Source of the DNA: Minisyncoccota bacterium
GTDB taxonomy: Bacteria > Patescibacteriota > Minisyncoccia > Phycocordibacterales > JABAAK01
Length of the DNA: 64,000 nucleotides
Reading direction: 5' to 3'
Assembly (NCBI GenBank): GCA_963668425.1
Contig: OY764332.1
Span: forward strand, 259,903 to 323,902
In this document: positions 5,301-59,900 of the stretch, in pieces
Position numbering within the stretch: the stretch's first letter is position 1
Layout of the letters: each line of letters opens with the position of its first letter
Notes under the pieces: generated by a model
Database searches by the model: none
What the model was told of the DNA's origin: nothing
Seen by the model: the letters and a program-made list of their open reading frames with translations, nothing else
Program-made: the position numbers and the translations under genes

Positions 5301-7216
5301 GAAGAACCACTACACTGCACGGTGTTACAGTTACTATCTTGTCCAGTGTTACAAGAGGCACTACGTGTCTTACCGCAGTCAATGGAAGATGCCGAAGGTA
5401 GAGCACTCCAAGAGGCAGATCTGGGAGAACAGGATCTACTTCCACAACCCTTCGTACCCGTTACGCTTGGTGAAGAACCACTGCACTGCACGGTGTTACA
5501 GTTACTATCTTGTCCAGTGTTACAAGAGGCACTACGTGTCTTACCGCAGTCAATGGAAGATGCCGAAGGTAGAGCACTCCAAGAGGCAGATCTAGGAGAA
5601 CAGGATCTACTTCCACAACCCTTCGTACCCGTTACGCTTGGCGAAGAACCACCACACTGCACGGTGTTACCACAGCTATCAACACCAGGAATGCAAGATG
5701 CACTCTTAGTAACACCACAGGCAACAGTAGATGCTGCAGGAAGGTCAGTCCAGGAAGGAGTGCGGGGAGTGGTGTTGCAGGCAGGAGTAACAACACAACG
5801 ATCGCCAGAGCATTTTCCACTTGCACACTTCGTACCCGTTACCGTTGGTGAAGAACCACTACACGACAAACCACCACATGAAGGACTTGGGTCATTGCAA
5901 GTTGCCGTCTCTGTAGTACCACAGGCAATGGAAGACGCCGAAGGTAGAGCACTCCACCCTCCATTCACAGGAGAGCAACCTCCCGTAACACAACTCCCCC
6001 CAGAGCATGTTTGCCCTGCGGCGCACGCTGTACCAGTACCAGTACAGGTTCTAGTAGGTCCAGCACCACTACACCCTATAGCAGAACAGGTAGTAGTTAC
6101 TCCAATACGGCAGTTGTCAGAGGCGGTGTTAGGTATAGCAGTACCACAGGCAACAGAAGAAGCACTTGCACAGTCCGGAGCAGGATACCAAGAAGCAGCA
6201 CGGTAGGTACAGGTTAGACTCGGTACAACACTTACGCTACGATACGCAGACCAAGCAGTGCAGGAATGTTTGCCCTGCGGCGCACGCTGTACCTTGTTCT
6301 TGCGCCTGAGACAAACATAGTAGGTACTACCGTTGGTGAGACCACCATAGGACTTGGATCGGGTTGTTTGTGTAGCGTAGGAGCCACCAGCACAGGTACT
6401 GGAGGTGGTAATCTTTGCTTGGTAGTCGTATAAAGCGATGTTGGTGAAACCAAAGTTGGTGGAACCAAAGTCAGCAATCGCTCCAGTGTTTTGTGGGCGT
6501 GTGGAAAAAAGCGATGGCTGTGGTGCAGTAGTGCAGGAGGTAACACAACTCCCCCCAGAGCATGTTTGCCCTGCGGCACATGAGAGGTACTGCGTCTTTT
6601 TGATGACAGATCCTACTCTGCAATAACGAACACGTCTGTTGTTGTCACTGCAAGTGTAGGCATCGTCCCACGTGCAGGGTATGCACCTCTGCTCTGCCTT
6701 GTTACAGAAAGTGGCACCAGAGCAGTGGCTGTCTTGCGTACACTGCACACATCTGCCGATAGCAGTATTACAAGCCGGAGTTGGTACAGCACAGTCACTG
6801 TCACGTTTACAAGGACTGCCAACACACTTAAGCCCCAAAGTGGTCAAAGCAGCAAACTCACCCACACTACAGCAGTCAGCACAGTCGGTGATATAGGTGC
6901 TTGCTCTGTTGGTAAGCGGAAAGCACGAAAGCCCTGTTGGAGTAATCTTTAGAAACTCCCCAGAATTACAGCACTCAGATGGGGTGTCACATTCATTACT
7001 CCATGTGTCAGTCGGTGCGGCGCAGACGATACCTTGGTGGGTGAGTGTGGCATACTCGTCAGTAGCACAGGTTGTCACCACATCAAGAGGGCTTTGACGA
7101 GTGGTCGGCGAGCGTGCCTCTACCGCCACACTTCCGACGAGTAAAGCATGAATAACCATCGCAATAAGCAACGCCGACAGTAGCACAAACCTAGTAGAAA
7201 AAATAAACAAAGGCAT
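2305..7216 (-). CDS. Giant secreted Cys-rich repeat protein (about 1630 aa if continuous) with thrombospondin-type-1-like (TSP1) repeats. An apparent +1 frameshift near 2625-2640 splits it into ORFs 2567..7216 and 2305..2781
   Basis: N-terminal signal peptide (MPLFIFSTRFVLLSALLIAMVIHALLVGSVAVEA). Repeated W-S-x-W-S...C...C-G-x-x-x-x-R/S-x-C modules, for example SWSSCSCTSSTSDSSTAGTQSRSCNGASCGGSCSGPSSRSC. The C-terminal repeat copy differs from the upstream copies by one inserted base, and the sequence continues in the 2305..2781 frame. Confidence 0.7.
2440..3490. repeat. Three tandem 351-bp intragenic repeats inside the giant gene
   Basis: Shadow ORFs 2821..3132 and 3172..3456 are identical. 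The DNA period is 351 bp. Confidence 0.85.
4775..5900. repeat. Six to seven tandem intragenic repeats of about 160-175 bp encoding a repeated 55-57-aa Cys module
   Basis: The motif cttcgtacccgt(c/t)acgcttggtg(g/a)ag recurs at 4775, 4931, 5101, 5279, 5451, 5626 and 5826. Confidence 0.8.
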
Positions 7217-7311: not shown

Positions 7312-8523
7312 ACACACAAAGAAAATCATTTTTCCCATTGTTCTCTCGGAATGCCGGATTGTCTCACAATAGCGCGCATTGTTCCGACCAGAATATGTCT
7401 GTCTCCATGACTTGGCACCACAACTAAACCGAACTCTCTTTTGTACCCCTTATACATTGAAAATGACTTCCTCTTGTTTTGAGTGTATCTTTGGTGGTGG
7501 TGTACTGGTTTGTATATATGAAAAAAACGACCAACGTGGTTTGTTGGTCGTTTTTGGTAAGGTTCAGTTGTACTTTACTTTAAGATACTTTTGGCACCAT
7601 TTGTAACGGTTTGGAGCTCTTGCTCGTATGCCGCCGTCTCTGGTTGCTTCATGGACTCCCAGGTTTCCTTCCCTCTCAACATCCCAGTAATAAACGTGAA
7701 ACTCAGCGGCGTTTTCAAGCATGTCTGATTCAGTGTGTTCGCTCTTGTCAAGCGTACCGATCCAGTGTTTGTGCGGAATCTCTGCCAAGTCCTTCTCCCA
7801 CGCCGCCTGGTACTCTTTACCCTCAGGGGTTTTTTCCCAATCAAACAAACTATTGTCACCATGCATAATGGCAACTGCGTGTTGCCGTGCATGGGCGAGC
7901 TCGTGGATGAGGACAGGGTGATAAATTTCACCTTCTTCCTCAGGGAATGCATAGTAGACCCCAACCTCATGCGATCCATAAGTCCCAAAAGTCATTCCTT
8001 CCCCATGATCAACGAACGCAGGACCTATTACAAGAAACAGATCATGCGGGAGTGGCTCAGATTCTAGGATGGAGCGGACTGCATCTGGCCACCGTAGCCC
8101 TACTAGAATCATACCCGGGGCGTTTTGTGGTTGTTCTCGATTTTGATACTCAGCGTCAAAGACCTCGTTCGGTCTTAGTTGCTGAAGTTCGGTAGGACGA
8201 GAGCGATAGGCGATTACCTCTTTTGGTTCAAGGTATGCCCGCTGTACCCGGAGGTACATTTTGTCTCCTTTTACATTTGGAAAGTGGAAGTAGCCACCTT
8301 CGTCGGTAGTTACTTGTTCTTCTTTTCTTGGACCATGTGTTATGGTCACAAGAGCGTTCTGCACTGGTGCTATGTAGTCCCCGCCAACCCATTCGTCATT
8401 ACTAGCATCTGGAACCTTCATACACACCCGACCGACAAAGTCCTCGGGATTACTCTCTGGTGGTGCGTACTCTCTGTACGGACCGGGGAAATCAAGCACC
8501 CACGCTGACTGTGGCAGCCAGTC
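7312..8523. repeat. Right arm of the about 1.2-kb inverted repeat (partner 1..1229)
   Basis: See the left arm. Confidence 0.8.
7521..7558 (-). terminator. Rho-independent terminator downstream of the peptidase gene (minus strand)
   Basis: Hairpin cgaccaac...gttggtcg followed by a T-run on the minus strand. Counterpart of the 987..1021 terminator. Confidence 0.6.
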
Positions 8524-9168
8524 AGATGCCACAGTGCCGTTATAGTATCCGTGGGTGATCGGCTCTTCTACTAGACCTGGTAGCCCTATCGTATCGGACT
8601 GTGTTACCTGCAGTTTCTTTGGGTGATGGTAAAACTTTGTGAGCGTGTTACCATCAAGGTCTGCTGATAATTTGCCGACCATGATGGACACCGCTTTGTC
8701 TGGCATTACGTACCTACAAATGTAGTCGTCTGTGCCAGAACCTAATGGCTTTGCATAGCCATGGATCAATTTTTCTTTGGGCGAGGTAACCTTGAAGCGT
8801 TCCATCGGGCTACCTCTTTCTTTGTACCAAAGCACCGGTCTACCGCTACCCTCGCCTGTAACAATATGCTCCATTGGCTCAGAGAAAACGATCTTAATAA
8901 AAACTGTTTCTCCTGCTTCAGCCGATTGTATCTCCTTGGTGAGTTTCCAGTCACTGTAGTAGCCGACTGATATTACCCTCGGAGTACCTATCGCCACGTT
9001 CATTGGAGCACTTGGAGCGTTTTCTGGAGTTCTTAGAGAGCCCAGCAAACCAAGTGTTTCATTATCGTCCAATACCAGTCCGTCTGGCTCCTCACCACAA
9101 CCCATGAGCAGAGCAATGGTTAGCACTGCAATTGCAATGTTCGCCACATGTTTCAATACATGTTTCAA
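7564..9168 (-). CDS. Lipoprotein zinc metallopeptidase (HExxH) with a carboxypeptidase-regulatory-like domain, 534 aa
   Basis: Lipobox signal (ALLMGCGEE). HELAHARQH motif. Beta-sandwich TITHGPRKEEQVTTDEGGYFHFPNVKGDKMY resembles the CarboxypepD_reg-like fold. Confidence 0.7.
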   Translation of the reverse strand: MKHVLKHVANIAIAVLTIALLMGCGEEPDGLVLDDNETLGLLGSLRTPENAPSAPMNVAIGTPRVISVGYYSDWKLTKEIQSAEAGETVFIKIVFSEPMEHIVTGEGSGRPVLWYKERGSPMERFKVTSPKEKLIHGYAKPLGSGTDDYICRYVMPDKAVSIMVGKLSADLDGNTLTKFYHHPKKLQVTQSDTIGLPGLVEEPITHGYYNGTVASDWLPQSAWVLDFPGPYREYAPPESNPEDFVGRVCMKVPDASNDEWVGGDYIAPVQNALVTITHGPRKEEQVTTDEGGYFHFPNVKGDKMYLRVQRAYLEPKEVIAYRSRPTELQQLRPNEVFDAEYQNREQPQNAPGMILVGLRWPDAVRSILESEPLPHDLFLVIGPAFVDHGEGMTFGTYGSHEVGVYYAFPEEEGEIYHPVLIHELAHARQHAVAIMHGDNSLFDWEKTPEGKEYQAAWEKDLAEIPHKHWIGTLDKSEHTESDMLENAAEFHVYYWDVEREGNLGVHEATRDGGIRARAPNRYKWCQKYLKVKYN

Positions 9169-9970: not shown

Positions 9971-10693
9971 TCATGATATTATACGCAGTATTTCTTCGCT
10001 ATCACTATACACTTTAGTGTACATCTTTTTTATATAGTCATCAACATTTTGTACATTAAACTCAAACTTCTCCTGCATCGCTTCGTTTCCTTCAGAAACT
10101 GTCTTCAAGACAAAATGAATCTTGATTTTTTCTTCAAATGTATTTTTAATTTCATTCACCACCTCCCGAGAACCGATAAACTGCCTGGCAAATGATTCCT
10201 TTGGTACTACTCTTCCTTCCACTTGTTCTCGTTTTTTTACAAATTTCCACGCACTCTTCGGTTCTTGATACACAAAAAACACTTCCACCCGGCACCCTCT
10301 TTTTAAAGATCGTTCTACATTACTTCTCGCTTTCTTAAAATTTGAAAATGTTGAATCTAACACAAAGTTATACCCCTTCTTGAAAATATGATCCAAGACC
10401 TTTTCCACTCCCAAGGATGCCGCTCCGTGATATTTCTCCGCATTATTCCCCGAGTATCCAGGTAACAACGACTTAATCACATCTTGGTCAATGTGAACAA
10501 AGGAGGTGTCAGAAATCTCTTCTATCAGACGTCTCGCTGTCTCAGTCTTTCCTGCACCTGGAGAACCAGACATAAACAACGCATTCTTTGTTTTCACTGA
10601 CTCACAATCCTTGCATACTTCTTCTATAATCTGATGAGCATTCTTTTTGACCCAATCCTTCAACGATTCTTCTGCTTGTTCCATGCTATCCAT
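9971..10693 (-). CDS. Zeta-toxin-like P-loop kinase (zeta toxin / AAA_33 superfamily). The true start is likely the Met at 10693; the 10786 start overlaps a peptidase-gene remnant
   Basis: Walker A motif FMSGSPGAGKTE near the N-terminus. Size and layout typical of zeta/PezT-type UNAG kinases. No epsilon-like antitoxin ORF nearby. Confidence 0.6.
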   Translation of the reverse strand: MDSMEQAEESLKDWVKKNAHQIIEEVCKDCESVKTKNALFMSGSPGAGKTETARRLIEEISDTSFVHIDQDVIKSLLPGYSGNNAEKYHGAASLGVEKVLDHIFKKGYNFVLDSTFSNFKKARSNVERSLKRGCRVEVFFVYQEPKSAWKFVKKREQVEGRVVPKESFARQFIGSREVVNEIKNTFEEKIKIHFVLKTVSEGNEAMQEKFEFNVQNVDDYIKKMYTKVYSDSEEILRIIS

Positions 10694-10803
10694 TATCCCA
10701 TACTCCTTATAACTCTCATACCATCTCGTGATCTGAATCAAACATGCTTGAAAACGCGGCTGAGTTTTGTGCCATGCATTGGACATTACAATGGAAAAAT
10801 AGT

Positions 10804-10930
10804 GCGCAAGGAATTTGTAAAAATACCCTTATTTCATAGGATATTTTGTCAAAATTCATTCCTTGTATATTGTAATTGACAAGGAATGCTACTTACTTGT
10901 ATATCGTAATATACAAGGAATTATTTTAGG
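10804..10930. promoter_or_regulatory. Conserved divergent promoter/operator cassette with the palindrome TTCCTTGTATA-N-TGACAAGGAA; copy 1, between the zeta-like kinase gene and Fic-1
   Basis: An about 130-bp stretch near-identical to 20677..20838. It contains the inverted repeat ttccttgtatattgtaattgacaaggaa plus a degenerate second copy. Confidence 0.55.
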
Positions 10931-11006
10931 TAAGGATATATTGCACTTTACAAAAAACAGATTTACGGCATTGTTTTAGTTTATATTGCGAGTTTTTGCC
11001 TAACAT

Positions 11007-11017
11007 TGTGATATAAT
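11007..11017 (+). promoter_or_regulatory. Extended -10 promoter element TGTGATATAAT upstream of Fic-1
   Basis: TGn plus TATAAT. The same element sits upstream of Fic-2 at 21035..21045. Confidence 0.4.
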
Positions 11018-11037
11018 ATTATTATGAGAAAAACATA

Positions 11038-12177
11038 GTGGGAGAACGCATATTTGCGTTTTTGGACATAATTGGATATAATTGGACATATATACCTATA
11101 TCCATATGTATGCAAGAAGATAGATTTATTAAACGAATCCCCATCACTTCTGAGATTATGCAAAAAATCTCTCGCATTGATGCTTTTAAGGGTTTTTGGG
11201 AGGGTGGACTGCGTTTGCATCCACGTGTTTTGACACAGCTGAAGAAGTGGGTTATCATCACCTCAACAGGTGCATCAACGCGTATTGAGGGGTCAAAAAT
11301 GAGCGATGCAGACGTTACAATGTTTCTACGTGGTTTACGTGTAAAGTCACCAAAAAATAGGGATGAGCAAGAGGTTGCGGGGTATGCTGACCTTGCCGCA
11401 AGAGTATTTGACAACTATACAATATTACAACTGACAGAAGGATATATTTTGCAGTTTCATAAGATTTTATTGCAGTTCTCAAAAAAAGATCAAAAGCATT
11501 TTGGGAAGTATAAAGCATCAGACAACATTGTCATTGCCCGCACTGATGATGGTGAGGAGAAGGTTCTTTTCAGACCAACTCAACCATACTTAGTAAAAAA
11601 AGAGATGGATGATGTGCTTGAGTGGACACGATCAACGCTTGCATCTGAAACACTGCACCCTATTCTTGTTATCTGTAACTTCATTTTTGAATTTCTTGCG
11701 ATTCACCCGTTTGTAGACGGTAATGGACGACTTTCTCGTATTTTAACAAATATGCTCCTGTTGCAGGCAGGATATGCTTATGTACCGTATGTTTCTTTAG
11801 AAGAAATTATTGAAAATCATCAGGTAGCATACTATAGGTCACTACGGGAAACACAAGTCAAGCATAAAACAGGGCATGAAGATATCGCTCCGTGGGTACA
11901 CTTTATGCTTGATATACTACTTGAACAATCTGAAAAAGCACAATCTGTTATGCAATCCGAGCATCCGGAGAAAATGCTATCAGAAAGCCAAACGACTATA
12001 TATACTCTGTTCACCGCCGACGAAGAGCTTGCCATTGCTGATATTGCTATGAAACTTCGTGATACTATTCCTCGGACAACTATAAAGCAAGCTGTGTTCC
12101 GCCTTATGCGACTTAATTTGTTGGAGCGAATCGGGAGCGGGAGAGGGACGCGATACCGTCGTATTATTCAACCATAG
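11038..12177 (+). CDS. Fic family protein (AMPylation-type Fic motif HPFVDGNGRLSR) with a C-terminal winged-helix region
   Basis: Canonical HPFx[DE]GNGR motif. N-terminal IEGS region as in the Fic_N domain. GTG start at 11038. A homologous ATG at 11024 is followed by a stop after 4 codons. Confidence 0.8.
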   Translation: MGERIFAFLDIIGYNWTYIPISICMQEDRFIKRIPITSEIMQKISRIDAFKGFWEGGLRLHPRVLTQLKKWVIITSTGASTRIEGSKMSDADVTMFLRGLRVKSPKNRDEQEVAGYADLAARVFDNYTILQLTEGYILQFHKILLQFSKKDQKHFGKYKASDNIVIARTDDGEEKVLFRPTQPYLVKKEMDDVLEWTRSTLASETLHPILVICNFIFEFLAIHPFVDGNGRLSRILTNMLLLQAGYAYVPYVSLEEIIENHQVAYYRSLRETQVKHKTGHEDIAPWVHFMLDILLEQSEKAQSVMQSEHPEKMLSESQTTIYTLFTADEELAIADIAMKLRDTIPRTTIKQAVFRLMRLNLLERIGSGRGTRYRRIIQP

Positions 12178-12384: not shown

Positions 12385-13875
12385 TTACTCAGACACTATC
12401 ACTACCCCCCTTGCCTGCGGGTTGATGTGGTCGTGGTACTGCCACTCCCCTACTTCGTTAAACCGAAACGCATACACCGCACCGGTACCCATTGCCTCAC
12501 AAGCATCAAAAATCATCGCTCGTTCATCGGTGGCACATTTCATGATATTTGATCCGGGATACTGCTTGTGTGTTGGGTGAAGATTTGCTGCAGGCCAGAA
12601 CACCTGATCTTCGTTCCTCCACATTACCACCTGCCCGGGTTGTATAGACACTGTGTTTGGTTGGAACTGTCTCTCCCGATACGTAATAACCTCCGCATCA
12701 GACCCGATAGTGTCAGGAATCATGCCTCCTCTGGGAAATGCAAAAGACACTGCGCTATCTTTTGTTGACATCTCATCATGCGTATGCTCGGTTTCATCAT
12801 GGTGCTCACCACCTTCCTCCGCACCTCCAAACAAACCAGCAAAGAACGATTTGATGCCATCAAGCAATTTCTGCAACCATGATCTTGAGACATCATGTTT
12901 CTCATCTACCATTACCTCCTCAGACAGTGCCTTGACAGCGCTGTGATGATGCTCAATGCCGGAGCGTGCGTTGCGCACTGATTGCCGACACACTTCCTCA
13001 TACACCCCTGCACCGACACACTTATCAGCAATAGGAAACGACTCGTCGCCAAATCGATGTAATAGATACTTTCCATGGTTTTTGTAGCATTTCTCACGGT
13101 ACTGCTCCTCTATTGTGTTGCACGGAGCAGATGCATCATCGTCAATGAAGCCATCACCGCCACCAGACGCAATATACTCATTCACATTCTCCATAAACAC
13201 ACCATCCCAACAATGCGATTGAAACTCCGGGGGTAATGCGTCGCACACCGCAAGCGCAGGAGCGAGTACGTGGTTGTTGCGTTTCATAAACATATGCCCC
13301 ATTTGGTGGTAGCATGCCTCTTGCTCGGCAACATCGGCATCTGTGGTAGTGACACAAATGGTTTCCGCGAAAAAATTATCTGGCTCAACACCATCAGCAG
13401 TTGAGGAGAATGCCTCAAAGAAGCCATATGCACATCCGTAGTCAAAATCATTCCCACACAACCCAAACTGGTTCTCTCTGTCTGCAAGCAGTTGCTCTCC
13501 AAGCACACGCCCTATTCTCTGAGCGAGTGCATATGCATCAACATCAAATGCTTGCACAGACACCAAGTCAGCCAATACTGCCTTTGCAAACTTTGGACCA
13601 GATCCCGCTATCGCCGCATCAACAATATCTTCCATGCATTCCTCTACCACACCACCTTCGCAAAGAGCAAGATAGCATGCCTCCTGCTCACCCGATGAGA
13701 TCACATGACAAATATTTACCTCAGATGGCAAGTTGTCATGTTTTTCATCACCATGCGCAAACACCACATTTACAGAAGAGAGCATGCCAAGCAAAAAGAG
13801 AAGAAAGGCAGTGATAACAATAGTACGTGTTGCCATGTTAGTAGCAGTATATAGTAATACAGCATTCATACACAA
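12385..13875 (-). CDS. Secreted Cys/His-rich modular protein (one M module, a His/acidic linker, and a cupredoxin-like C-terminal domain), 496 aa
   Basis: Signal peptide (MATRTIVITAFLLFLLGMLSSVNVVFAHG). The M module (ACYLALCEGG...FGLCGNDFDYGCAYGFFEAF...CYHQMGHMF...GVFMENV...PCN) is shared with the two downstream genes. The C-terminal V-x-W-x-NED...HPTH...YHDH...GVVIV follows cupredoxin spacing. Confidence 0.6.
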   Translation of the reverse strand: MCMNAVLLYTATNMATRTIVITAFLLFLLGMLSSVNVVFAHGDEKHDNLPSEVNICHVISSGEQEACYLALCEGGVVEECMEDIVDAAIAGSGPKFAKAVLADLVSVQAFDVDAYALAQRIGRVLGEQLLADRENQFGLCGNDFDYGCAYGFFEAFSSTADGVEPDNFFAETICVTTTDADVAEQEACYHQMGHMFMKRNNHVLAPALAVCDALPPEFQSHCWDGVFMENVNEYIASGGGDGFIDDDASAPCNTIEEQYREKCYKNHGKYLLHRFGDESFPIADKCVGAGVYEEVCRQSVRNARSGIEHHHSAVKALSEEVMVDEKHDVSRSWLQKLLDGIKSFFAGLFGGAEEGGEHHDETEHTHDEMSTKDSAVSFAFPRGGMIPDTIGSDAEVITYRERQFQPNTVSIQPGQVVMWRNEDQVFWPAANLHPTHKQYPGSNIMKCATDERAMIFDACEAMGTGAVYAFRFNEVGEWQYHDHINPQARGVVIVSE

Positions 13876-13931
13876 ATATTATACAGAACATTTCCTTCCT
13901 ATACCCATCTATCCATAACTCCTTCTGCACT

Positions 13932-15179
13932 TTATTCAGAAACTACCACCACACCGGTCGCCCGTGGGTTGCTATGGTCGTGATAGCGCCACCGCCCAGG
14001 TTCAGTAAAGACAAATGAATACTCAGTGCCATAGGGTAACTCTTTGCATGCATCAAAAATACTTTCCTGTTCTGCTGTCCCACATTTTTTAATATCTGAC
14101 CCAGGATATGCTGCATGAGTTGGGTGGATGTTGGATGCTGGCCAAAACGACTCTTCAGTGTCTTCATTCACCCACGTTACTTCTTGCCCGACTGCTATGT
14201 GTATAACATCTGGCATATACTCCCCTCCTTGGTAGCGTATCACTGCGTTTTCAGTCTTCTGAACGGTAGAGTAAGGTGTCTGTGTAGTACCGACATCCGT
14301 AACAGATAACGAAACAGCTTTTGGTGTTTTGCGTTCCATACATTCTGACTGATATCGATCTGGTAATGTCCGGCAGAAATCAGGTAACCCATCTGTTGAG
14401 ATAACCTCTGTCGCCTGTGTCATAAGACGATCATAACAAATTTCTTCAAAAGAAGAATCCGAAGACAGCGCGCAAAATGCGACCGCGCCCGTCTCCTGTG
14501 ATGGATCCCAAAATAAATTATTCAATGCCCCCTCCAAACACCCATTTCTACCGGGTACATACGCTATACGCATACACACCTTCCTACTTTGCACTGGATC
14601 CAGCAGCATCTGACCGGACACCGTCCGCCCCATGCTATGAAAACAAGCAAACCGAAAATGCTCCGGTGCATCAGCACACGCGATACCAACTGCATCAAAA
14701 TCACCGAGCAATCGGTGCATATGATCGGTTTGTAGCCAATAACACTCATGCTTATACTTCTCCTTTACTGCATTACACGGATAGTGTGGGTCATCATTTA
14801 GATACTGCGTATAGTGGACACCACCTTCTGCTTGCTCATCTTGCACGATACCACCGACAACATTCTCCATGAACACGCCGGAATAACAGGATTTCTGATG
14901 ATACTGTTGACGAATTAAATCACACGCCTCCAGCGCATCATATATCTTATAGTCATACCACGCCATCAGCCCATGTCCAATACCGTGAATACACTGGTGC
15001 ATATGAAACCTATTCCCTGCCTCATCACCACAGAGTGTATGCAAACTGTCAATTAAGTCAGTAGTGCCATTTGCCGCAAAAAATGCCTCAGTTGCTCCGT
15101 GTCGGCATCCAGAGTGACACTCTATCCCACAACTCTTAAACGACTCACCACCGAACAAATCATACGCCCGCCGACCCAT
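13932..15179 (-). CDS. Secreted Cys/His-rich modular protein, paralog (M module plus cupredoxin-like domain). It probably starts at about 15349 with a frame disruption near 15180-15250
   Basis: Same M-module motifs (CIHGIGHG, GVFMENV, PCN) and the same C-terminal domain (TWVNEDTEESFWPASNIHPTH...RYHDHSNPRATGVVVVSE). The ORF 15122..15349 encodes a signal-peptide-like N-terminus (MGKDVRFAVFVLAIFCGAMA) in another frame. Confidence 0.55.
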   Translation of the reverse strand: MGRRAYDLFGGESFKSCGIECHSGCRHGATEAFFAANGTTDLIDSLHTLCGDEAGNRFHMHQCIHGIGHGLMAWYDYKIYDALEACDLIRQQYHQKSCYSGVFMENVVGGIVQDEQAEGGVHYTQYLNDDPHYPCNAVKEKYKHECYWLQTDHMHRLLGDFDAVGIACADAPEHFRFACFHSMGRTVSGQMLLDPVQSRKVCMRIAYVPGRNGCLEGALNNLFWDPSQETGAVAFCALSSDSSFEEICYDRLMTQATEVISTDGLPDFCRTLPDRYQSECMERKTPKAVSLSVTDVGTTQTPYSTVQKTENAVIRYQGGEYMPDVIHIAVGQEVTWVNEDTEESFWPASNIHPTHAAYPGSDIKKCGTAEQESIFDACKELPYGTEYSFVFTEPGRWRYHDHSNPRATGVVVVSE

Positions 15180-15437
15180 CTCATGCGCTCTGTTGTGGCA
15201 ATCAATCCCCTTTGAGTATTCAAGTCAGGGGTTAGTGCTGTAGTCGGCTTCTCCTGCCACCCGTCAAAACTAAACATTGCCATAGCACCACAGAATATAG
15301 CCAACACAAAAACAGCAAAACGGACATCTTTACCCATGTGGAGCAACATACTTCACCCCAAACAGCATTACTGCCTTAGATTTGACTTATCTGCATACAG
15401 ACATCTTGATACATCCCTTTTGGTATTTGACACCTAT

Positions 15438-18400
15438 CTATTTTTTAAACATGTTGATCAGGTATCTCACTACCCTGCTGAACAGATTGAGATGATCTTC
15501 ATACTCTTCCTCATTGATACGATTCACCTCATCGGTGCTTGCAGTCCATTCAGCCACAAACGTAACACTTTCTTCACCATTATGATATGGATGCAAGCAA
15601 TCATTATAATATATCTCCGGCACCTGATTGCAAAATTTGTACAGATCTGTCTCATCTTTCACCTTACCCCCGACATTCCTCCCGATGACCTTCCAGCATC
15701 TACTCCTATATCTTTCGTTCAATTTTCCGCAAAATTCCTTTGTGTTCTCTATCCCATAATAAGTAAAATTCTGATCAATTGCCGGTTCGTAGCATCGCAT
15801 ATGATATTCTTCGCTAAATTGATTACAAATGAAAATGGTTTTGTCTATGAGGTTTCCTGAAATACTGTCATCCAACAACACATCCTGGGTACTTGCATAG
15901 ATAGACTGTGCGCCAAGGTTATATACACAGTCCTGCACATAGCCGTCTTCAACCTTGTTGCACATATCAATCATTTTTTTTAAATCCCATTGTAGTGCAT
16001 ACAACCAATACGATACTTGAGATTGATAGCAGAGTGTTTTATACCGCTCATTAAGATTGTTACATGGAGCAAAAGGGTCTTCAGTGCGAAACCCATTATC
16101 AATTTCATCATTTGTTTTCCTGCCTTGTGCACCACTTACATTTTCCATAAATACTCCACTATAGCAATCCCATTTTCGATGCTCCCTCTCCAACAAATCA
16201 CACTGTTCTAATGGCTTATACAGTCCATAACTGTAATTCATTACCAATGCGTGACCTGATCCGTGATAGCATGCAGTTTTTGCATATGGTGGAGTGTCCG
16301 GCATATTACTACAGGTATTTTCTATGAACTCGGCGGGGCTAGGAACAACAGCAAGACCGGCTTCAAAAAATCCATGATGGCAACCGTAGTCAAAATCAAT
16401 TGGACACTTGAGAAATGCTTCTCCGGTTAACCCAAATTTCTCTCCTGTTGATCTTCCTATAGTGTGTGTTATTTGATGTGCAGATGACGGCTCAAACAAA
16501 AACTCTCCCTCCCATGTCATGTCATGTAGTGCCCTGATGGACTCTTTCGGACCTGATCCAAAAACTAGTTGGGTAACAATTTCTTCTGCACAGAGATATC
16601 CTGGCTCATATTCACACAACGATGCGTAGCAACCTGCTCTCCCCACATCCAAAGCTGCACACTCCTGCGCACTATCAAATAAATTTTTGTTAAACTTTTC
16701 TTCCTGCAGGTGTTGCTGCCAATCCTGTGCAGATGCCGGTAAAGTAACTGCGCTTACCGCACTCTTAACTGCATCTAAAATACTTTGTGTGATTTTTTTA
16801 AATAAAGAAACCAGGTTTCTCTCCTTCTCTATTTTTGTTACTGGTAATTCTCCATATACATCTTCACCATGCTGAATATCTGCACTTACGTTATTATCAA
16901 GTCGATATCCAAACAAACATTCATTTCTATACTCATCCGGCACATCTACACACTTTTCTGTTTTCTCCTCTTCATGCACAACCATATCCTGTAACCTTCT
17001 ACCCATCTCTCGATAACAATTTCGTTCATACTTTTTATCAATTTTTACACAAAACTCAGATGTTTTTTTTGCTCCGTAGAATATGAAGGTTTGATTTATT
17101 GCCCAGAGATAACATGTCTCACGGTACTTTTCTGGAAAATGATTGCATAGATATATTGTTTTATCTATAAAGTTTCCTTCTATGTGTGGCATCAGTTTTT
17201 CTTGAATCTCTTTATACATCCCATACCCTCCAACGCCATGTGCACATGATTCTGCCTCTTCACCGGCGTCTAGACATGTATCAACGACACCTTGAATATC
17301 ATAGTCAAAATACCATGCTAAATATGGCAAATGTGTTTCATAACATACATCTCGATATCCGTACCCCTCTCCATCCTCCACCAATGTGTCGCATGGAGCG
17401 TGTGGATTATTTTCATCAAAACTGTTATTTTCTGTATATATCTCTTGTATCCTTCCTGATACAAAAGCGTCTACGTTTTCCATGGTCACGCCGGAGAAAC
17501 ATGTAAATGGCTGTGGTAACGCCTTGCAAATATCCAGTGCCTCATAGAGATCATAGCTTGTGTTCATGAGTATGCCGTGACCAGCACCATGATAACAATT
17601 CACCTTATCAAGTGACGGCTGATCGGGCAAGGTTTCACATATCTGTTTTACTGCCTCAGCAGGTGATTGTGCCTCTACAAGCGCAACCTCAAGAAACCCA
17701 TGGTGGCAACCTGAATCAAATGATGTTGGACATCTCAGAAATGCTTCTCCTGAACCATTGAACCTTTTTGCTGTTTTTCTCCCAACAACATGTGCAAGTC
17801 CATGCCCCTCATCTGCCGAAGAGAATGAAAAGGGGGTTGATGGTATAATTTCTCTGAGTATCTGCATACCTAACTCCGGACCATTGTGTTCAACTGCTGT
17901 TTCTACTATTTTCTCTGCACACAAATATCCAGGTTCATATTCACACAGAGAAGCGTAGCATTCCGCACGACCATCCTGCTGGTTGATGCACCGCTCAATT
18001 GCGAAAAAACTGGTATCAGGTGCATCAACAGAATCCTTGACACTTTGTGCAGAAACAGGTCCAGCAAATAGAGCGGAGAGGTTTCTGAAAAGGGTAACAA
18101 AAAAATCTTTAACCTTTATGAGTAAGTAGTCATTCTGATCAACATCATCTGCCATCGCCTTATTTACAGCAGTGGTGGCACTTTCCTCAAAATCTGAAAT
18201 AACAACCTCAGCATGCCTTGTATACGGATCTAAACAATCCTGCTGATATATGGTAGGGATCTCGGCACATGCTGACTGTTTCACCTCCTCACTCCCTAAA
18301 TGATTTAAATATGAGCCGGCTTGTTTGAAACATGCTGCTCTGTGTCTCATTTCAATGCTACCACAAAACGTGCTAACTCGATGCATGGAGGGGTAATCAA

Positions 18401-19436
18401 AGTTCAACAACGCACCAACTAGCGGAATATAGCACGATGCCTTGTAGCCATCTGGGAATTCACTACACAAAAAAATAACTTTTTCCATGTATGGACGATC
18501 GGTAATACCAAAGCTATCAAAAACAATATTGGTTCGCTGTGCATTCTGCAACATTAAGCCGATACCAGAGAGACAATCAGCAGTATGATTTCCCGCCTGT
18601 AAACATATCGCGACCAATCCATCAAATGAAGTGGTATGCTCATGCATCAGATACCCATAGTGCTCCATATAGCATGTCGGTCTGAAATCTGCATCAAGCG
18701 CGTTGCATGGATAGAGAGGGTCGTCCTTGCGAAAGTTATTGCTCTTCTCTTCCCATGCTCTCGTTGGCCACGCATTTTCCATGAACACACCACTCAGGCA
18801 CACCGTGTGCCACCGATCAGGAACAGCGGTACAGGCATCTATACTGGCATCAAGATTATAATTTTCATTCATGAGGAACACATGTCCAGCGCCGTGATAA
18901 CAGTACGACTTCTCTTTATCTGAAGTCGTTTCTGACGGCATGTCTTCACATATACTGATTGCGACAGTCACTGGGTCATCAACCTTCACTAACGTATCTT
19001 CAAAAAACCCGTGATAACAGCCATCATTAAAATCATGTGGGCATCGTAGAAAGTTCTCCCCCGAAGAGCCAAATACTCGTGAAGTCGTCCGCCCAATAAC
19101 ATGCGACAGTAAGTGCCCGTCGGTAGTAATGGCAAATGCCGGGCTCGCCATAATATCATGTAGCACTTCCATTGCTCGTGCAGGGCCGGCAACCTCAACC
19201 GCCACATCCGACAACTCCTCCGCGCACAAATATCCAGGTTCATAGGTACACAAATCCGCATAGCATGTGTCGTTCCAAGTATCCTGCAAACACACTTCAA
19301 TTCCTTCGAGCATCGCTTCTCGTGCATCACCACTGACCTCCTCTGTCGCCGAAACATTCTGCATAGTAAGTATCACAAGAAGTAAAAAAATGGGCAGAAT
19401 AAAACCAAAAAACAAGAATATTTTGCGAACAAGCAT
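15438..19436 (-). CDS. Giant secreted Cys/His-rich protein with three tandem M modules and no cupredoxin-like domain, 1332 aa
   Basis: Signal/TM N-terminus. Three about 400-aa repeats, each with CYA(D/S)LC(T/E)YEPGYLCAE, GH-x-L-x-H-x-x-GR, GE(A/N)FL(K/R)CP-x-(D/S)FD-x-GC-x-HGF(F/L)E, CYHG(A/S)GH, GVFMEN and PCN motifs. Confidence 0.65.
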   Translation of the reverse strand: MLVRKIFLFFGFILPIFLLLVILTMQNVSATEEVSGDAREAMLEGIEVCLQDTWNDTCYADLCTYEPGYLCAEELSDVAVEVAGPARAMEVLHDIMASPAFAITTDGHLLSHVIGRTTSRVFGSSGENFLRCPHDFNDGCYHGFFEDTLVKVDDPVTVAISICEDMPSETTSDKEKSYCYHGAGHVFLMNENYNLDASIDACTAVPDRWHTVCLSGVFMENAWPTRAWEEKSNNFRKDDPLYPCNALDADFRPTCYMEHYGYLMHEHTTSFDGLVAICLQAGNHTADCLSGIGLMLQNAQRTNIVFDSFGITDRPYMEKVIFLCSEFPDGYKASCYIPLVGALLNFDYPSMHRVSTFCGSIEMRHRAACFKQAGSYLNHLGSEEVKQSACAEIPTIYQQDCLDPYTRHAEVVISDFEESATTAVNKAMADDVDQNDYLLIKVKDFFVTLFRNLSALFAGPVSAQSVKDSVDAPDTSFFAIERCINQQDGRAECYASLCEYEPGYLCAEKIVETAVEHNGPELGMQILREIIPSTPFSFSSADEGHGLAHVVGRKTAKRFNGSGEAFLRCPTSFDSGCHHGFLEVALVEAQSPAEAVKQICETLPDQPSLDKVNCYHGAGHGILMNTSYDLYEALDICKALPQPFTCFSGVTMENVDAFVSGRIQEIYTENNSFDENNPHAPCDTLVEDGEGYGYRDVCYETHLPYLAWYFDYDIQGVVDTCLDAGEEAESCAHGVGGYGMYKEIQEKLMPHIEGNFIDKTIYLCNHFPEKYRETCYLWAINQTFIFYGAKKTSEFCVKIDKKYERNCYREMGRRLQDMVVHEEEKTEKCVDVPDEYRNECLFGYRLDNNVSADIQHGEDVYGELPVTKIEKERNLVSLFKKITQSILDAVKSAVSAVTLPASAQDWQQHLQEEKFNKNLFDSAQECAALDVGRAGCYASLCEYEPGYLCAEEIVTQLVFGSGPKESIRALHDMTWEGEFLFEPSSAHQITHTIGRSTGEKFGLTGEAFLKCPIDFDYGCHHGFFEAGLAVVPSPAEFIENTCSNMPDTPPYAKTACYHGSGHALVMNYSYGLYKPLEQCDLLEREHRKWDCYSGVFMENVSGAQGRKTNDEIDNGFRTEDPFAPCNNLNERYKTLCYQSQVSYWLYALQWDLKKMIDMCNKVEDGYVQDCVYNLGAQSIYASTQDVLLDDSISGNLIDKTIFICNQFSEEYHMRCYEPAIDQNFTYYGIENTKEFCGKLNERYRSRCWKVIGRNVGGKVKDETDLYKFCNQVPEIYYNDCLHPYHNGEESVTFVAEWTASTDEVNRINEEEYEDHLNLFSRVVRYLINMFKK

Positions 19437-19494: not shown

Positions 19495-19553
19495 TGGCAC
19501 CTGTTTTCATTGACCTGAACTATAAGCTGGATTCTGTACTCGCTTTACGTGGG
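19495..19553 (-). repeat. Partial duplicate of the RNase P RNA 3' end plus terminator flank (about 60 nt); left direct repeat of a 3.0-kb islet
   Basis: tggcacctgttttcattgacctgaactataagctggattctgtactcgctttacgtggg is about 92% identical to 22495..22554, exactly 3000 bp away. Confidence 0.65.
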
Positions 19554-19766
19554 CAGAGACGTACCTCAACAAACAGTACGACTGATCTTTAACTCTTACA
19601 TAAAACGATCAACAGCATGTTGGTCGTTTTATTTTGCTACATAGCGCCTTGCAAATAAAGCGTAAAATACCCCGTAGAACAAGAGTTACTGATTGCAGCG
19701 TGAATAACTTATTGACAAAAGTAAAGATCTTGGGATACACTATTCTTATGAAAGAGGTTCCGGGCC

Positions 19767-20483
19767 CTAGAGGACATCCGGGCCTCTTTCGCTTTGCAAT
19801 GATACCGCTGGTATAGAAACACATAAGCGACTCATATCACAGACACTTTTAGCGCGTTGAATAATATCAAGCATCTGTATTGGCAAGCAGTATCTTGAAT
19901 CTACTTGCACAACATGCGTGGGGAGAATTTTTGGTAAATTAATTTGATGCCTGTGTGAAAATATATCTTCTTTAGTGCGTGAAAGAGTTTTCTCAGTAAG
20001 ATATTTTCTCAAATTATCTGAATCTTTTTTGTTTTCAGCATAGCGGTCTATAATCAACTCTATCGGCTTTCCGAATGTAAATAATAATTCTTTTGCTGAT
20101 ATATACTCCAATGCTTTCTTTAAAACAAAGTTCCTGAACCAAAGAGGGTTTCTTTGGTACTTACCATCTCTGAGATATGGACCGATATATTTTGTTTTAT
20201 CTATCATCATTTCATAAAATTGCACATCGTTCAGATATGGTATTTTTTCTACAAGGTTTTTTAAATTTTTTCCACTGAGTTTTTTCAATTCTTTTTTATG
20301 ACCGTTAAAAAATTTAAACCCTGCAATGAGGTATTCTATATCTCCAACCCCTTGTTCAGTCGCTATGCCTATATTTATAGTAAAATGCTGACTTGATGAC
20401 CGATGTGCAACTGGATCACCGGCATCACCGCTCTCATCTATAAACACAAAAAGTTTTTTGGCTTTACTGTAATCCATATTCAT
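19767..20483 (-). CDS. DUF3800-like protein (N-terminal FIDESGD motif), 238 aa
   Basis: KLFVFIDESGDAGD near the N-terminus matches the DUF3800 (PF12686) signature as recalled from memory. No other recognizable domain. Confidence 0.55.
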   Translation of the reverse strand: MNMDYSKAKKLFVFIDESGDAGDPVAHRSSSQHFTINIGIATEQGVGDIEYLIAGFKFFNGHKKELKKLSGKNLKNLVEKIPYLNDVQFYEMMIDKTKYIGPYLRDGKYQRNPLWFRNFVLKKALEYISAKELLFTFGKPIELIIDRYAENKKDSDNLRKYLTEKTLSRTKEDIFSHRHQINLPKILPTHVVQVDSRYCLPIQMLDIIQRAKSVCDMSRLCVSIPAVSLQSERGPDVL

Positions 20484-20676
20484 TCATTATACTTTGCTCG
20501 TTTTTTTGTGACACGCACTAGTATACCTCCTGAAACTTAATACTTTTTGTTTGAACAGTAGGAGTGCGTTATTCCGAAAGATTGCCATATTATACCCGCT
20601 TTTTGTCAAAAAAGCGGGTACAAAATTTGTAATACATAAAAAAACGGGTATACCATGTGTACTGTAGAAGACAAAT

Positions 20677-20838
20677 GCGCAAGGAATTTGTAAAAAACTC
20701 CTTATTTTATAAGATATTTTACCAAAATTTATTCCTTGTATACTGTAATTGACAAGGAATGCTATTTCCTTGTATATTGCAACTGACAAGGAATACTACT
20801 TCCTTGTATAGTGCAATTGACAAGGAATTATTTTAGGC
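20677..20838. promoter_or_regulatory. Divergent promoter/operator cassette, copy 2 (three TTCCTTGTATA-N-TGACAAGGAA palindromes), between the DUF3800 gene and Fic-2
   Basis: Near-identical to 10804..10930 but with an expanded palindrome array at about 20732, 20766 and 20800. Confidence 0.55.
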
Positions 20839-20888
20839 AGAGATCTATTATACTTTACAAAAAGTAGATATGTTGTATTATCTTGGTT

Positions 20889-21010
20889 TATATTATTAGT
20901 TTTGCTTAAAAGTTGCAATATGAAAATTTATATTATTAGTTTTGCTTAAAAGTTGCAATATGGAAATTTATATTATTAGTTTTGCTTAAAAGTTGCAACA
21001 TGGAAATGTA
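20889..21010. repeat. Three tandem 40-bp repeats (tattattagttttgcttaaaagttgcaatatg(a/g)aaattta)
   Basis: Direct repeats with the block tattattagt at 20891, 20931 and 20971. Confidence 0.8.
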
Positions 21011-21050
21011 TATTGCAAGTATTTATCTAAAATTGTGATATAATAGTACT

Positions 21051-22220
21051 ATGATAAAAACAAGAGAAAAGGGATATGGTGATTTTACGGCAGGAATACA
21101 TAAAAAACACTTTTATAACAAAGAGTATGCATATGAGAGTTTTGTTCCACATTCTGTGAACAGAGAGTATGCTTTTCAAGATTCCAGAATACTTACCCTC
21201 CTTGAAGAGGCGACTAGACATCTTGCGGAATTAAACGCATATTCTGATTTGGTTCCTGATGTTGATTTCTTTATTCAAATGCATGTACGAAATGAGGCGG
21301 TGAAATCAAGTAAAATTGAAGGCACACATACAGACATTAGTGAAGCTGTTCTCTCAGAAAAAGAGATTGAGCCAGAGAAAAGAAATGATTGGCAGGAGGT
21401 TCAAAATTATATAACCGCAATGAATTATGGAATAAAAAAGTTGGAGAAACTGCCTTTGTGTATGCGTCTGTTGTGTGAGACGCATGCAAAGCTGATGCAC
21501 GGTGTTAGAGGGGAGAACAAACAGCCGGGAGAGGTGCGATTAAAGCAGAACTGGATTGGTGGTGTCAGTATTAAAACAGCGTCTTTTATACCACCCCATC
21601 AGGACGATGTCCCCGAACTGTTGAAAGATTTAGAGAAGTTTTGGAATGATAAAAATAATCTTATCATGCCGGATCTGATAAAAGTTGCTATTTCTCATTA
21701 CCAATTTGAAACAATTCATCCGTTTAATGATGGTAACGGCAGGATAGGTCGTATATTAATAGTACTCCATCTTATGCAGATGGGTATATTAAGCAAGCCA
21801 ACGCTTTACCTATCTGATTTCTTTGACAAGCACAAGAGTGCCTACTATGATGCGCTGATGTTTGTAGGAGAGAGAGATGACCTTGATCAATGGATACTCT
21901 TTTTTCTGTCGGGCGTTGTTGAAACTGCAAAAAAAGGAAGAAGTATTTTTCAAGACATTATTGAGTTACGGAGTCAATATGAACAAAAATTGCTTAACCT
22001 TGGCGGTCGCGCGAAAACAGCGAATAAATTACTTCAGTTTTCCTTCTCTCATCCTGCATTTGATACTGTGACAGTATCAGATTACCTTAATATATCACGC
22101 AGTTCAGCAAACATACTTGTGAAACAGATGTCAAGCATGGGCATATTAAAAGAATCAACTGGTTTTTCAAGGAACAGAATCTTTACATTACATCAATATC
22201 TTGACCTGTTTAACACGTAA
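21051..22220 (+). CDS. Fic family protein (HPFNDGNGRIGR) with a C-terminal winged helix. The ATG is only 5 nt after the TGTGATATAAT -10 element, so the mRNA may be leaderless
   Basis: Canonical Fic motif. IEGTHT in the N-terminal domain. Promoter element at 21035..21045. Confidence 0.8.
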   Translation: MIKTREKGYGDFTAGIHKKHFYNKEYAYESFVPHSVNREYAFQDSRILTLLEEATRHLAELNAYSDLVPDVDFFIQMHVRNEAVKSSKIEGTHTDISEAVLSEKEIEPEKRNDWQEVQNYITAMNYGIKKLEKLPLCMRLLCETHAKLMHGVRGENKQPGEVRLKQNWIGGVSIKTASFIPPHQDDVPELLKDLEKFWNDKNNLIMPDLIKVAISHYQFETIHPFNDGNGRIGRILIVLHLMQMGILSKPTLYLSDFFDKHKSAYYDALMFVGERDDLDQWILFFLSGVVETAKKGRSIFQDIIELRSQYEQKLLNLGGRAKTANKLLQFSFSHPAFDTVTVSDYLNISRSSANILVKQMSSMGILKESTGFSRNRIFTLHQYLDLFNT

Positions 22221-22277
22221 TATATCTCTGTATATACACCGGCAATGCATGAGGATAATGTATTGTATTGAAAAGAT

Positions 22278-22450
22278 GTGAGGGTGTTTTTGGACATAAT
22301 TGGATACAATTGGACATATATACCTATATCCATATGTAGGCAAGAAGGTGGATTTATTAAACGAACCTTACTTGTGCTTCTGAGATTGTGTAAAATTTTT
22401 GCACTGATGCTTTCAAAGGGCTTGTATGCTGGCGCTTTTGTTTGTTGTGG
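22278..22450 (+). pseudogene. Degraded copy of a Fic-1-type 5' end (95-bp direct-repeat/palindrome element plus diverged N-terminal coding sequence)
   Basis: tttttggacataattggata(c/t)aattggacatatatacctatatccatatgta...gatttattaaacgaa matches 11040..11130. The downstream sequence still aligns loosely to the Fic-1 codons, then stops. Confidence 0.45.
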
Positions 22451-22476
22451 CAAGGTTTAGATTGTGTCCTTATGTG

Positions 22477-22505
22477 AAAACAAGGTGCCGATTTGGCACC
22501 TTGTT
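22477..22505 (-). terminator. Terminator hairpin (caaggtgcc...ggcaccttg plus U-run) at the 3' end of RNase P RNA
   Basis: Perfect 9-bp stem followed by TTTTC on the minus strand. Confidence 0.6.
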
Positions 22506-22855
22506 TTCATTGACCTGAACTATAAGCCGGATTCTGTACCCACTTTACGTGGGTGGTAATCATTTATCTTGACACGCCGTTGCCGGCGTGTTCTTTGCGG
22601 CACTCCGTTGCATTGCTGCCTCGGCACGACCTTGCACTCAGGTAGGAATTTAGCCGTTTCACCACCGCGTTGCCACGGTATTCACCTCAGAGAGGTGCCC
22701 TCACTTCTCAGATTGGGCGTCACTGCTCGCATCCCTCGGTTTTCACCAGACGGGCGTTACCCGCTACCCTGCTCCACCAAAGAGTGGGAGTGTCCGGACT
22801 TTCCTCTCGTTGCTTGTTACAACGAGCGATTACCTGTTCGGGTAGTTATAGTATA
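22506..22855 (-). ncRNA. rnpB: RNase P RNA (bacterial type A), about 350 nt
   Basis: The minus strand carries the universally conserved P4 strands: AGGAAAGUCCGGAC near the 5' end and ACAGAAUCCGGCUUAUAGUUCAGGUCA at the 3' end. P1 pairing ACUAUAA/UUAUAGU. ORFs 22569..23440(+) on the opposite strand are spurious. Confidence 0.85.
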
Positions 22856-59841: not shown

Positions 59842-59900
59842 CTATGTACTGACGCCCTTCCGTCAGTGTTTTGTTTATTAGAGACAACTCTGATGGTGGA

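Follow-up and report, generated by a model that had tools for sequence, protein, structure and literature searches.

A 64,000-nt window of the genome of a Minisyncoccota bacterium (contig OY764332.1, positions 259,903 to 323,902; positions below are those of the window) carries on its minus strand three head-to-tail open reading frames (ORFs), in the order C, B and A, whose products are built from a large module, here MOD, and, in A and B, a C-terminal cupredoxin-like domain, here CUP. The three consecutive minus-strand ORFs had been reported in an earlier note made from the sequence, and they were recovered at the coordinates given there. MOD and CUP are read here, tentatively and with slightly less than even confidence, as a self-contained extracytoplasmic metal-binding unit, the metal probably being copper, and not as a blue-copper electron carrier. 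It draws on the structure of the genes, the export signals and folds of their products, residues that are invariant or covary, and the association of the two domains; what is said below of metal binding, of which metal it is and of any activity is conditional.

MOD is ∼350–380 aa long. The AlphaFold2 model of the first module of C (predicted local distance difference test score, pLDDT, 88.9; predicted template modelling score, pTM, 0.86) was entirely helical, with ∼23 helices that make up a solenoid of about nine hairpins. No match to MOD was found in Pfam or NCBIfam, none recurring even weakly among 20 diverse modules, and no relative was found in the PDB by sequence profile or by fold, which agrees with the earlier suspicion that the module belongs to no described family. 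The PADLOC and PHROGs profiles (anti-phage defence and phage families) gave no match for A, B or C. MOD is nevertheless a large domain family, absent from every curated library searched: a profile search of 1.84 billion cluster representatives returned 7,820 proteins at E ≤ 1e-3 and 2,835 at E ≤ 1e-30 (family clusters defined at 50% identity), and a single peptide pattern was found at no fewer than 575 loci in species-representative genomes, all of them metagenome-assembled. Members were found in Patescibacteria, DPANN archaea, Actinomycetes/Gaiellaceae, Chloroflexota, Binatia, Nitrospirales, Terriglobia and Methanosarcinales, and the closest species-representative locus lies on a chromosome of 661,662 bp labelled ‘Candidatus Paceibacterota’ (Minisyncoccota in the NCBI taxonomy). 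The typical member is a single-module protein of ∼380 aa, and the largest arrays reach 7 modules in 3,580 aa.

The hidden Markov model (HMM) of the module detected three copies in C (E 1e-143 to 1e-154) and one each in A and B, in agreement with the earlier count, and the same paralogy was visible in the DNA-level repeat families D4, D5, D7 and D8. The motifs by which the module had first been described do occur, but not all five copies have them unchanged. AYALAQRIGR stands for GHxLxHxxGR and GCAYG for GCxHG in A, where the last third of the module is missing; the B ORF lacks the N-terminus of the module, and CYxxLCxYEPGYLCAE never occurs in B-type proteins.

Conserved residues were determined over 348 module instances and are numbered by the fragment of C module 1 that heads alignment A1. 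Near-invariant cysteines come in pairs (C124/C140, C163/C174, C205/C216 and C239/C249); C93 and C101 were both present in 257 modules, both absent in 90 and found singly in 1, and 318 of the 348 modules had an even number of Cys. This paired covariation argues for disulfides rather than metal ligands, so the density of Cys, which had been taken as a sign of metal binding, does not speak for it; the MOD cysteines are probably disulfide staples of an exported protein, one per helical hairpin. Helicobacter cysteine-rich proteins (Sel1-like repeats) are secreted alpha/alpha repeats with one Cys pair per repeat. MOD differs from them in its conserved His/Met/Glu constellation, in its fixed nine-hairpin architecture and in having no match to the Sel1/TPR repeat profiles of Pfam.

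The invariant polar residues of MOD are H142 (346/348), H146 (348/348), M180 (346/348) and E181 (341/348). Three more His, H69, H73 and H103, are kept in ∼92% of the modules, and in the A-type all three give way at once to Y/Q/Y; since they are lost only together, they act as one unit. When the MOD profile was aligned with itself by hhalign, an internal duplication was detected (probability 96.7%, E 4e-10) that superposes H142xxxH146 on H69xxxH73 and C174-x-S-G-x-x-M180-E181 on C101-x-H103-G-x-x-E107-D, and MOD therefore contains two homologous sets of potential ligands. We propose H69, H73 and H103 (with E107) as site I, and H142, H146 and M180/E181 as site II. The helices concerned are 68–83, 96–112, 134–151 and 168–183 in the AlphaFold2 model; each site consists of an HxxxH helix and the next long helix, and both sites lie within the first four hairpins. 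A set of three His and a set of two His with Met (or Glu) belong to the inventory of known copper sites.

The A-type MOD is without both site I and the last three hairpins, and the module of A itself covers only HMM positions 17–266. A-type proteins carry additional His motifs, namely HGDEEH at the N-terminus in 20 of 24 and HH(x)H after the module in ∼18 of 24 (HHH in A), and these conserved motifs are proposed to stand in for the lost site I. The His/acidic linker EEGGEHHDETEHTHDE described for A is present at aa 353–368. As a feature of the family it did not hold, since linkers of this type were found only in the closest A orthologs; His-rich linkers in general were rejected as a family hallmark, with 16 among 300 family proteins against 56 among 670 control ORFs.

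The C-terminal domain that A and B had been said to share was confirmed over ∼108 aa at 50% identity, and its proposed cupredoxin-like nature was supported by profile, fold and family searches. With a CUP profile built from 35 family members, the best PDB match was 9cck_A, a multicopper oxidase (MCO) of N. maritimus (3.5e-10; labelled copper-containing nitrite reductase in the PDB sequence copy), and further matches were obtained with amicyanin (2e-8), plastocyanin (5e-5), and laccases and ascorbate oxidase (∼1e-3). The AlphaFold2 model of P0038, an intact ortholog of B (pLDDT 85.1), has beta strands at aa 392–494. The top 50 PDB matches of this model in Foldseek were all cupredoxins, with ∼110 aligned columns, the best being 5fc9, a purple cupredoxin (target-normalised TM-score 0.79, E 3e-6); Foldseek also matched the Zn-bound PF13473 protein 4hcg (E 8e-4), which was not recovered in sequence searches. 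PF13473 matched 34 of the 35 family CUP domains at E ≤ 0.01 (best E 6e-8), the domains of A and B scoring 15–17 bits, under the Pfam gathering score of 27 bits, and most stand-alone relatives of CUP have a precomputed PF13473 match. As judged from these profiles and the model, CUP is a genuine cupredoxin and belongs to the PF13473 lineage.

The fold of CUP and its homology to amicyanin and plastocyanin (E 2e-8 to 5e-5, target-normalised TM-score ∼0.7) would also fit an extracellular blue-copper system of the plastocyanin/amicyanin type, in which these proteins transfer electrons, as the earlier note had considered. All four type-1 ligand positions of amicyanin are, however, replaced (H53 by S, C92 by D/N, H95 and M98 by variable residues): none of the His-Cys-His-Met ligands was conserved, and no Cys stood at the type-1 position, in any of 267 CUP domains, so CUP cannot be a plastocyanin-like electron carrier. 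Unlike amicyanin and plastocyanin, moreover, CUP is fused to MOD or adjoins it, and no cytochromes or respiratory partners were seen in the window or among 128 flanking genes. A blue-copper system is thus extremely improbable. The H-x-H pair of CUP, which had been thought to replace the Cys-His ligands, was instead found to bracket the type-1 Cys position, occupied here by Asp.

The invariant features of CUP are W43-P-A-S, H49-P-T-H52, D73, G92-x-W94 and H97-(D 230/N 37)-H99, with H49, H52, D73, H97 and H99 each kept in 265–266 of the 267 domains; Cys number either two or none. In the alignment to domain 1 of 9cck, HPTH falls on HGTH, and G-x-W-x-x-H-D-H on a segment ending in YHCH. In MCOs, the type-2/type-3 coppers sit at a domain interface and are bound by the His residues of two motifs, HXXHXH and HCH (PMC3670849). 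HPTH and H-D/N-H correspond to parts of these two motifs, with Pro beside the first His, and stand at positions that MCOs and NirK use for interface copper. This correspondence suggests that CUP retains interface-type His ligands while the type-1 site has been lost, and it could hold a His-only metal site, either by itself or where it meets a second CUP or MOD. The full MCO set comprises HXHG, HXH, HXXHXH and HCHXXXHXXXXM (PMC3670849); unlike MCOs and NirK, CUP is a single domain with Asp/Asn for Cys, has lost the downstream His and Met, and lacks HXHG and HXH, so a single chain could form no type-1 site and no complete trinuclear cluster.

A second comparison was made with the CuB site of PmoB, which consists of His33 (amine and side chain), His137 and His139 (PMC12576850). 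The invariant HxH of CUP resembles that of PmoB/AmoB, and a subset of the family has a predicted N-terminal His. Unlike in PmoB/AmoB, this His is not universal, and in A it lies ∼390 residues from CUP; Monooxygenase_B (PF04744) matched 1 of 35 CUP domains, weakly (E 0.008), and no PmoA or PmoC was seen in the window or among the flanking genes. A universal ‘histidine brace’ formed by the N-terminal His after signal cleavage was rejected, as such a His was predicted in 25 of 53 MOD-CUP proteins (including A, AHGDEKH) and 18 of 60 CUP-MOD proteins, and is enriched only in the A-type and in some CUP-MOD proteins.

The CUP signature was found in at least 970 clusters, mostly as stand-alone exported proteins of 110–200 aa that are often annotated ‘plastocyanin’. 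The public proteins P0298–P0417 are small exported proteins of this kind (‘plastocyanin’ or ‘cupredoxin domain-containing protein’) with WPASNIHPTH...H[DN]H and no type-1 Cys. Judging by the ligand positions, the ‘plastocyanin’ annotation of proteins with the CUP signature is very likely wrong, and WPASNIHPTH...GxWxxH[DN]H flags hundreds of proteins very likely misannotated as blue-copper.

Among 156 family proteins the layout was MOD-CUP in 56, CUP-MOD in 40 and MOD alone in 55, with a few multi-MOD proteins. At eight loci a small CUP gene adjoins one to three MOD genes, and one of three stand-alone CUP loci examined has no MOD neighbour. Tandem paralogy is usual, the extreme being 8 consecutive genes in Patescibacteria UBA2163. 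The co-occurrence of the three genes in related genomes, another suggestion of the earlier note, was seen as an unchanged C-B-A order in the closest relatives, loci L090 and L091 (C orthologs of 1338–1371 aa at the same position), and as variants in L001, L002 and L004; in L001 a giant FG-GAP protein adjoins the cluster. In a Pfam census of the 128 immediate neighbours at 80 loci across phyla, each family occurred at most 3 times; transporters, cytochromes and EfeU/EfeB were all absent. Synteny in an all-against-all BLAST of flanking ORFs was lineage-specific only (SUF genes in Actinomycetes, mutase/MeaB in Binatia), with sporadic glycosyltransferase (GT2, GT39) and 6PGDH genes. GT2 and GT39/PMT-like genes were seen a few kb from MOD at nine loci in Actinomycetes, Chloroflexota and Parcubacteria, and they are not enriched among immediate neighbours overall. 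A metal cluster shared between MOD site I and CUP was considered and is unlikely, as the A-type keeps CUP without site I and MOD-only genomes keep site I. MOD and CUP are proposed to work as a unit with no further conserved partner. No description of the MOD-CUP pairing was found in the literature, and searches there on cupredoxins of Patescibacteria or Parcubacteria yielded no relevant work.

The closest parallel in architecture is EfeO, in which a PF13473-type Cup domain is joined to an all-alpha M75 domain with an HxxE site, and which occurs in Cup+M75 and M75-only forms (PMC9174327). Like EfeO, MOD-CUP is extracytoplasmic by prediction, combines a PF13473-type cupredoxin without type-1 site with an all-alpha His/Glu domain, and has its helical domain both with and without the cupredoxin. 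Iron handling of the EfeO kind, in which the cupredoxin would oxidise or bind Fe(II)/Cu and the all-alpha domain would bind Fe(III) for a permease, could be envisaged on this parallel. MOD is, however, unrelated to M75 by sequence or fold and has no M75/imelysin HxxE site; the domain order is often reversed, CUP has a signature of its own (WPASNIHPTH...HDH), and neither EfeU (FTR1) nor EfeB (DyP) was found among the neighbours in the window or recurred among the 128 genes flanking the 80 loci (Pfam), so that no EfeU/EfeB operon accompanies the genes. EfeO-like iron handling is accordingly improbable. What is new is MOD as an alpha partner unrelated to that of EfeO, and CUP as a distinct uncharacterised subfamily within a known fold family.

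Metal binding by MOD-CUP is the best reading because the His/Met/Glu sets are invariant and co-vary, and copper is favoured because CUP descends from cupredoxins, an invariant Met lies beside site II, and the CUP His stand at positions like those in MCOs. The A, B-type and C proteins would be exported to the cell surface or another extracytoplasmic location, where disulfides would stabilise the MOD scaffold. MOD would then hold two mononuclear sites, one His3 and one His2-Met/Glu, each with one ion, most likely copper, and CUP a His-only, type-2-like site, His4(Asp). Such a unit may sequester or handle copper at the cell surface, or may act as a copper-dependent oxidoreductase.

Several observations weigh against this reading. 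B, the sole protein of the window with both a site-I-type MOD and CUP, is disrupted in this genome (see below). No metal-transport, redox or chaperone family recurs in the Pfam census of flanking genes across phyla, and His-rich linkers are not enriched across the family. AlphaFold2 was unconfident at the HPTH loop (pLDDT < 50 at aa 431–444 of P0038), and the residue at the former Cys position of CUP, being D or N, is unlikely to serve as a ligand. To our knowledge there is little copper biology on record in bacteria of the candidate phyla radiation (CPR). Arrays of up to 7 modules resemble surface binding proteins or adhesins more than enzymes, and some MODs are fused to FG-GAP or Laminin_G_3 domains, which is adhesin-like rather than enzyme-like.

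These last two points lead to a different explanation, in which MOD is a surface adhesin or structural repeat, a disulfide-stapled block used for attachment or ligand binding by episymbiotic CPR bacteria, DPANN archaea and others; the His/Met/Glu residues would be fold determinants or holders of structural ions, and CUP an accessory resembling an immunoglobulin domain. It would account for the tandem arrays of 2–7 modules per protein and the runs of up to 8 paralogous genes, for the FG-GAP and Laminin_G_3 fusions and the giant FG-GAP neighbour in L001, for the amphipathic helix after each module, and for the failure to find enzymatic or transport partners nearby. Binding surfaces normally vary, yet five His, one Met and one or two Glu are invariant from CPR bacteria to Binatia and archaea, and three of the His are lost strictly together; most members, moreover, have a single module of ∼380 aa, and this view offers no reason for an obligatory link to a cupredoxin in which four His are invariant. 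We therefore regard an adhesin as unlikely, though it deserves to be kept in view. The co-varying His/Met/Glu sets and the obligatory-looking partnership with a His4 cupredoxin suggest a defined chemistry over a generic scaffold.

A metal-independent enzyme, e.g., a hydrolase or lyase acting on glycans or the cell wall with His/Glu acid-base catalysis, would also provide a defined chemistry. Glu181 is invariant in a groove-like alpha-solenoid, GT2 or GT39-like genes lie near MOD at 9–10 loci in three phyla, and one MOD is fused to a ConA-like lectin domain. A match of MOD to a known non-metal family such as a glycoside hydrolase had been named beforehand as the result that would count against metal, and in sequence and fold searches no glycoside hydrolase, lyase, transglycosylase or other known non-metal enzyme resembled it; five invariant His and an invariant Met would be an unusual catalytic inventory, and the glycosyltransferase neighbours are not general. 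An enzyme of this kind therefore has a low probability.

A more specific form of the copper reading would make MOD an analogue, built on a helical solenoid, of the non-coupled binuclear copper centre found in peptidylglycine and dopamine monooxygenases. It would be served by a CUP that lacks the type-1 site and retains MCO-type interface His, and MOD-CUP would be a new class of extracellular copper protein. The His3 and His2-Met sites would have arisen by the internal duplication, and two CUPs (e.g., those of the paralogs A and B) or the interface of CUP and MOD would form a copper site reactive towards oxygen or substrate. We consider this version rather unlikely.

If MOD-CUP does bind copper, it would represent a new architecture in extracytoplasmic copper biology, and ultra-small symbionts would gain a surface metal-handling or oxidase function; if the copper-enzyme reading is true, such an enzyme would occur widely, in CPR bacteria, in DPANN archaea and in soil phyla. 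If no copper is bound, the MOD family is still a well-defined target for structural genomics, spanning CPR, DPANN, Actinomycetota, Chloroflexota, Binatia, Nitrospirota and others. In a genome of ∼0.7 Mb, the three genes make up ∼1% of the coding capacity.

Gene B had been described as an intact gene of ∼470 aa. That length joins two frames: the main ORF encodes 415 aa, and a leader with a signal anchor lies upstream of it in a different frame. When the DNA was aligned to the 83%-identical ortholog at L091, B was found to be short of 94 nt (31 codons plus 1 nt) at the junction 15215/15214, and it is this frameshifting deletion that puts the leader out of frame with the main ORF. The public annotation of the same genome gives B as the 415-aa ORF only (P0071), whereas the intact ortholog P0038 has 495 aa (83% identity to the B ORF) and B orthologs elsewhere are intact at 495–515 aa. 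In this genome B is thus, as judged from its sequence, probably a pseudogene or the source of an N-terminally truncated, unexported product. An assembly error is a possible source of the gap, but a 94-nt deletion is not typical of such errors.

Signal peptides had been claimed for all three proteins. Hydrophobic, signal-peptide-like N-termini were found in A (ending VFA/HGDEKH, with the slash at the predicted cleavage) and C (ending VSA/TEE), so the claim held for these two and failed for B, whose leader is out of frame. Hydrophobic N-terminal signal or anchor segments are present in ∼90% of 370 family proteins. The order of elements in A is signal peptide, HGDEKH, shortened MOD, amphipathic helix, His/acidic linker and CUP; an alternative start of A, the ATG at 13869, gives 494 aa and a product identical to the public protein P0001. 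The intergenic gaps are 88 nt (C to the B leader) and 56 nt (B to A), and promoter and terminator scans were not informative, promoter-like sites being rarer than in the shuffled control. A conserved amphipathic, hydrophobic helix follows each A/C-type module (e.g., DYLLIKVKDFFVTLFRNLSALFAG and SWLQKLLDGIKSFFAGLFGG), and the inter-module linkers of C run on past it into signal-peptidase-like ends (...VSAQS and ...PASAQD); these helices may be leftover signal peptides of fused tandem genes, or membrane-surface anchors.

Table 1. Positions of the MOD/CUP genes, their parts and other features of the window
Feature	Position	Strand	Details
Gene C	15438-19436	-	1332 aa; three full MOD modules; predicted to be exported; ORF and module HMM
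C signal peptide (predicted)	19347-19436	-	aa 1-30; MLVRKIFLFFGFILPIFLLLVILTMQNVSA then TEE; read from the sequence
C module 1	18174-19301	-	aa 46-421; HMM
Candidate sites in C module 1			site I: H108, H112, H141; site II: H181, H185, M219, E220
C module 2	16830-17999	-	aa 480-869; HMM; 35% identity to module 1
C module 3	15537-16670	-	aa 923-1300; HMM; 34% identity to module 1
C post-module helices	18060-18131, 16755-16814, 15441-15491		aa 436-459, 875-894, 1316-1332
B leader ORF	15122-15349	-	signal anchor MLLHMGKDVRFAVFVLAIFCGAMAMF...; three-frame translation and DNA alignment to L091
B main ORF	13932-15179	-	415 aa
B MOD without N-terminus	14277-15179	-	aa 1-301
B CUP	13935-14261	-	aa 307-415; HPTH 14115-14126; YHDH 13974-13985
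Gene A	12385-13875	-	496 aa from TTG
A-type MOD of A	12859-13716	-	aa 54-339; keeps H190, H194, M229, E230; HHH cluster after these, aa 309-311
A post-module helix	12823-12882		aa 332-351
A His/acidic linker	12772-12819	-	EEGGEHHDETEHTHDE
A CUP	12388-12705	-	aa 391-496; cupredoxin without type-1 site; WPAAN 12583-12597; HPTH 12568-12579; YHDH 12427-12438
Large ORF	2567-7216	-	1549 aa
Lipoprotein-like ORF	7564-9168	-	534 aa; CarboxypepD_reg domain; HELAHARQH motif
Zeta-toxin family kinase	9971-10786	-	
Fic/DOC gene, first	11038-12177	+	
Fic/DOC gene, second	21051-22220	+	
Fic upstream regions, duplicated	10787-11137, 20660-21062		80-85% identity over ∼250 nt
Fic1 start and its copy	11058-11137, 22286-22365		80 nt; 95% identity
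Direct repeat, two copies	19502-19553, 22502-22553		52 nt; 94% identity
DUF3800 gene	19767-20483		
Tandem repeats	20872-21031		40-nt units
RNase P RNA gene (rnpB)	22507-22845	-	
tRNA-Ile	59769-59842		anticodon TAT (UAU)

The block is flanked by genes of mobile or toxin type, with Fic twice, a zeta toxin and DUF3800 (Table 1). In L090 and L001 it is followed by genes for a pseudouridine synthase, an AI-2E transporter, ribosomal protein S6 and SSB; the genes found here differ from these, so the region downstream of the block has undergone rearrangement in this genome. Two ORFs lying shortly downstream probably encode further large uncharacterised surface proteins: the 1549-aa ORF has no match in Pfam, PADLOC or PHROGs, and the lipoprotein-like ORF has a zincin-like HExxH motif.

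Upstream of gene C, the second copy of the 52-nt direct repeat is the 3′ end of the RNase P RNA gene, and the ∼3 kb between the two copies (19554–22501) contain the DUF3800 gene, the 40-nt tandem repeats and the second Fic gene. No integrase gene turned up in this stretch, which has the look of an insertion with the 3′ end of rnpB as its target and which now borders gene C on the upstream side. The two Fic genes share a duplicated upstream region, with one copy on each side of the block, and the MOD/CUP genes thus stand between duplicated Fic cassettes. The 80-nt start of Fic1 recurs after Fic2 in a copy that contains a stop codon and is a remnant of a second Fic1-like gene start. Farther away, one of the 9 tRNA genes in the window is a tRNA-Ile with the anticodon TAT (UAU), which is uncommon in bacteria.

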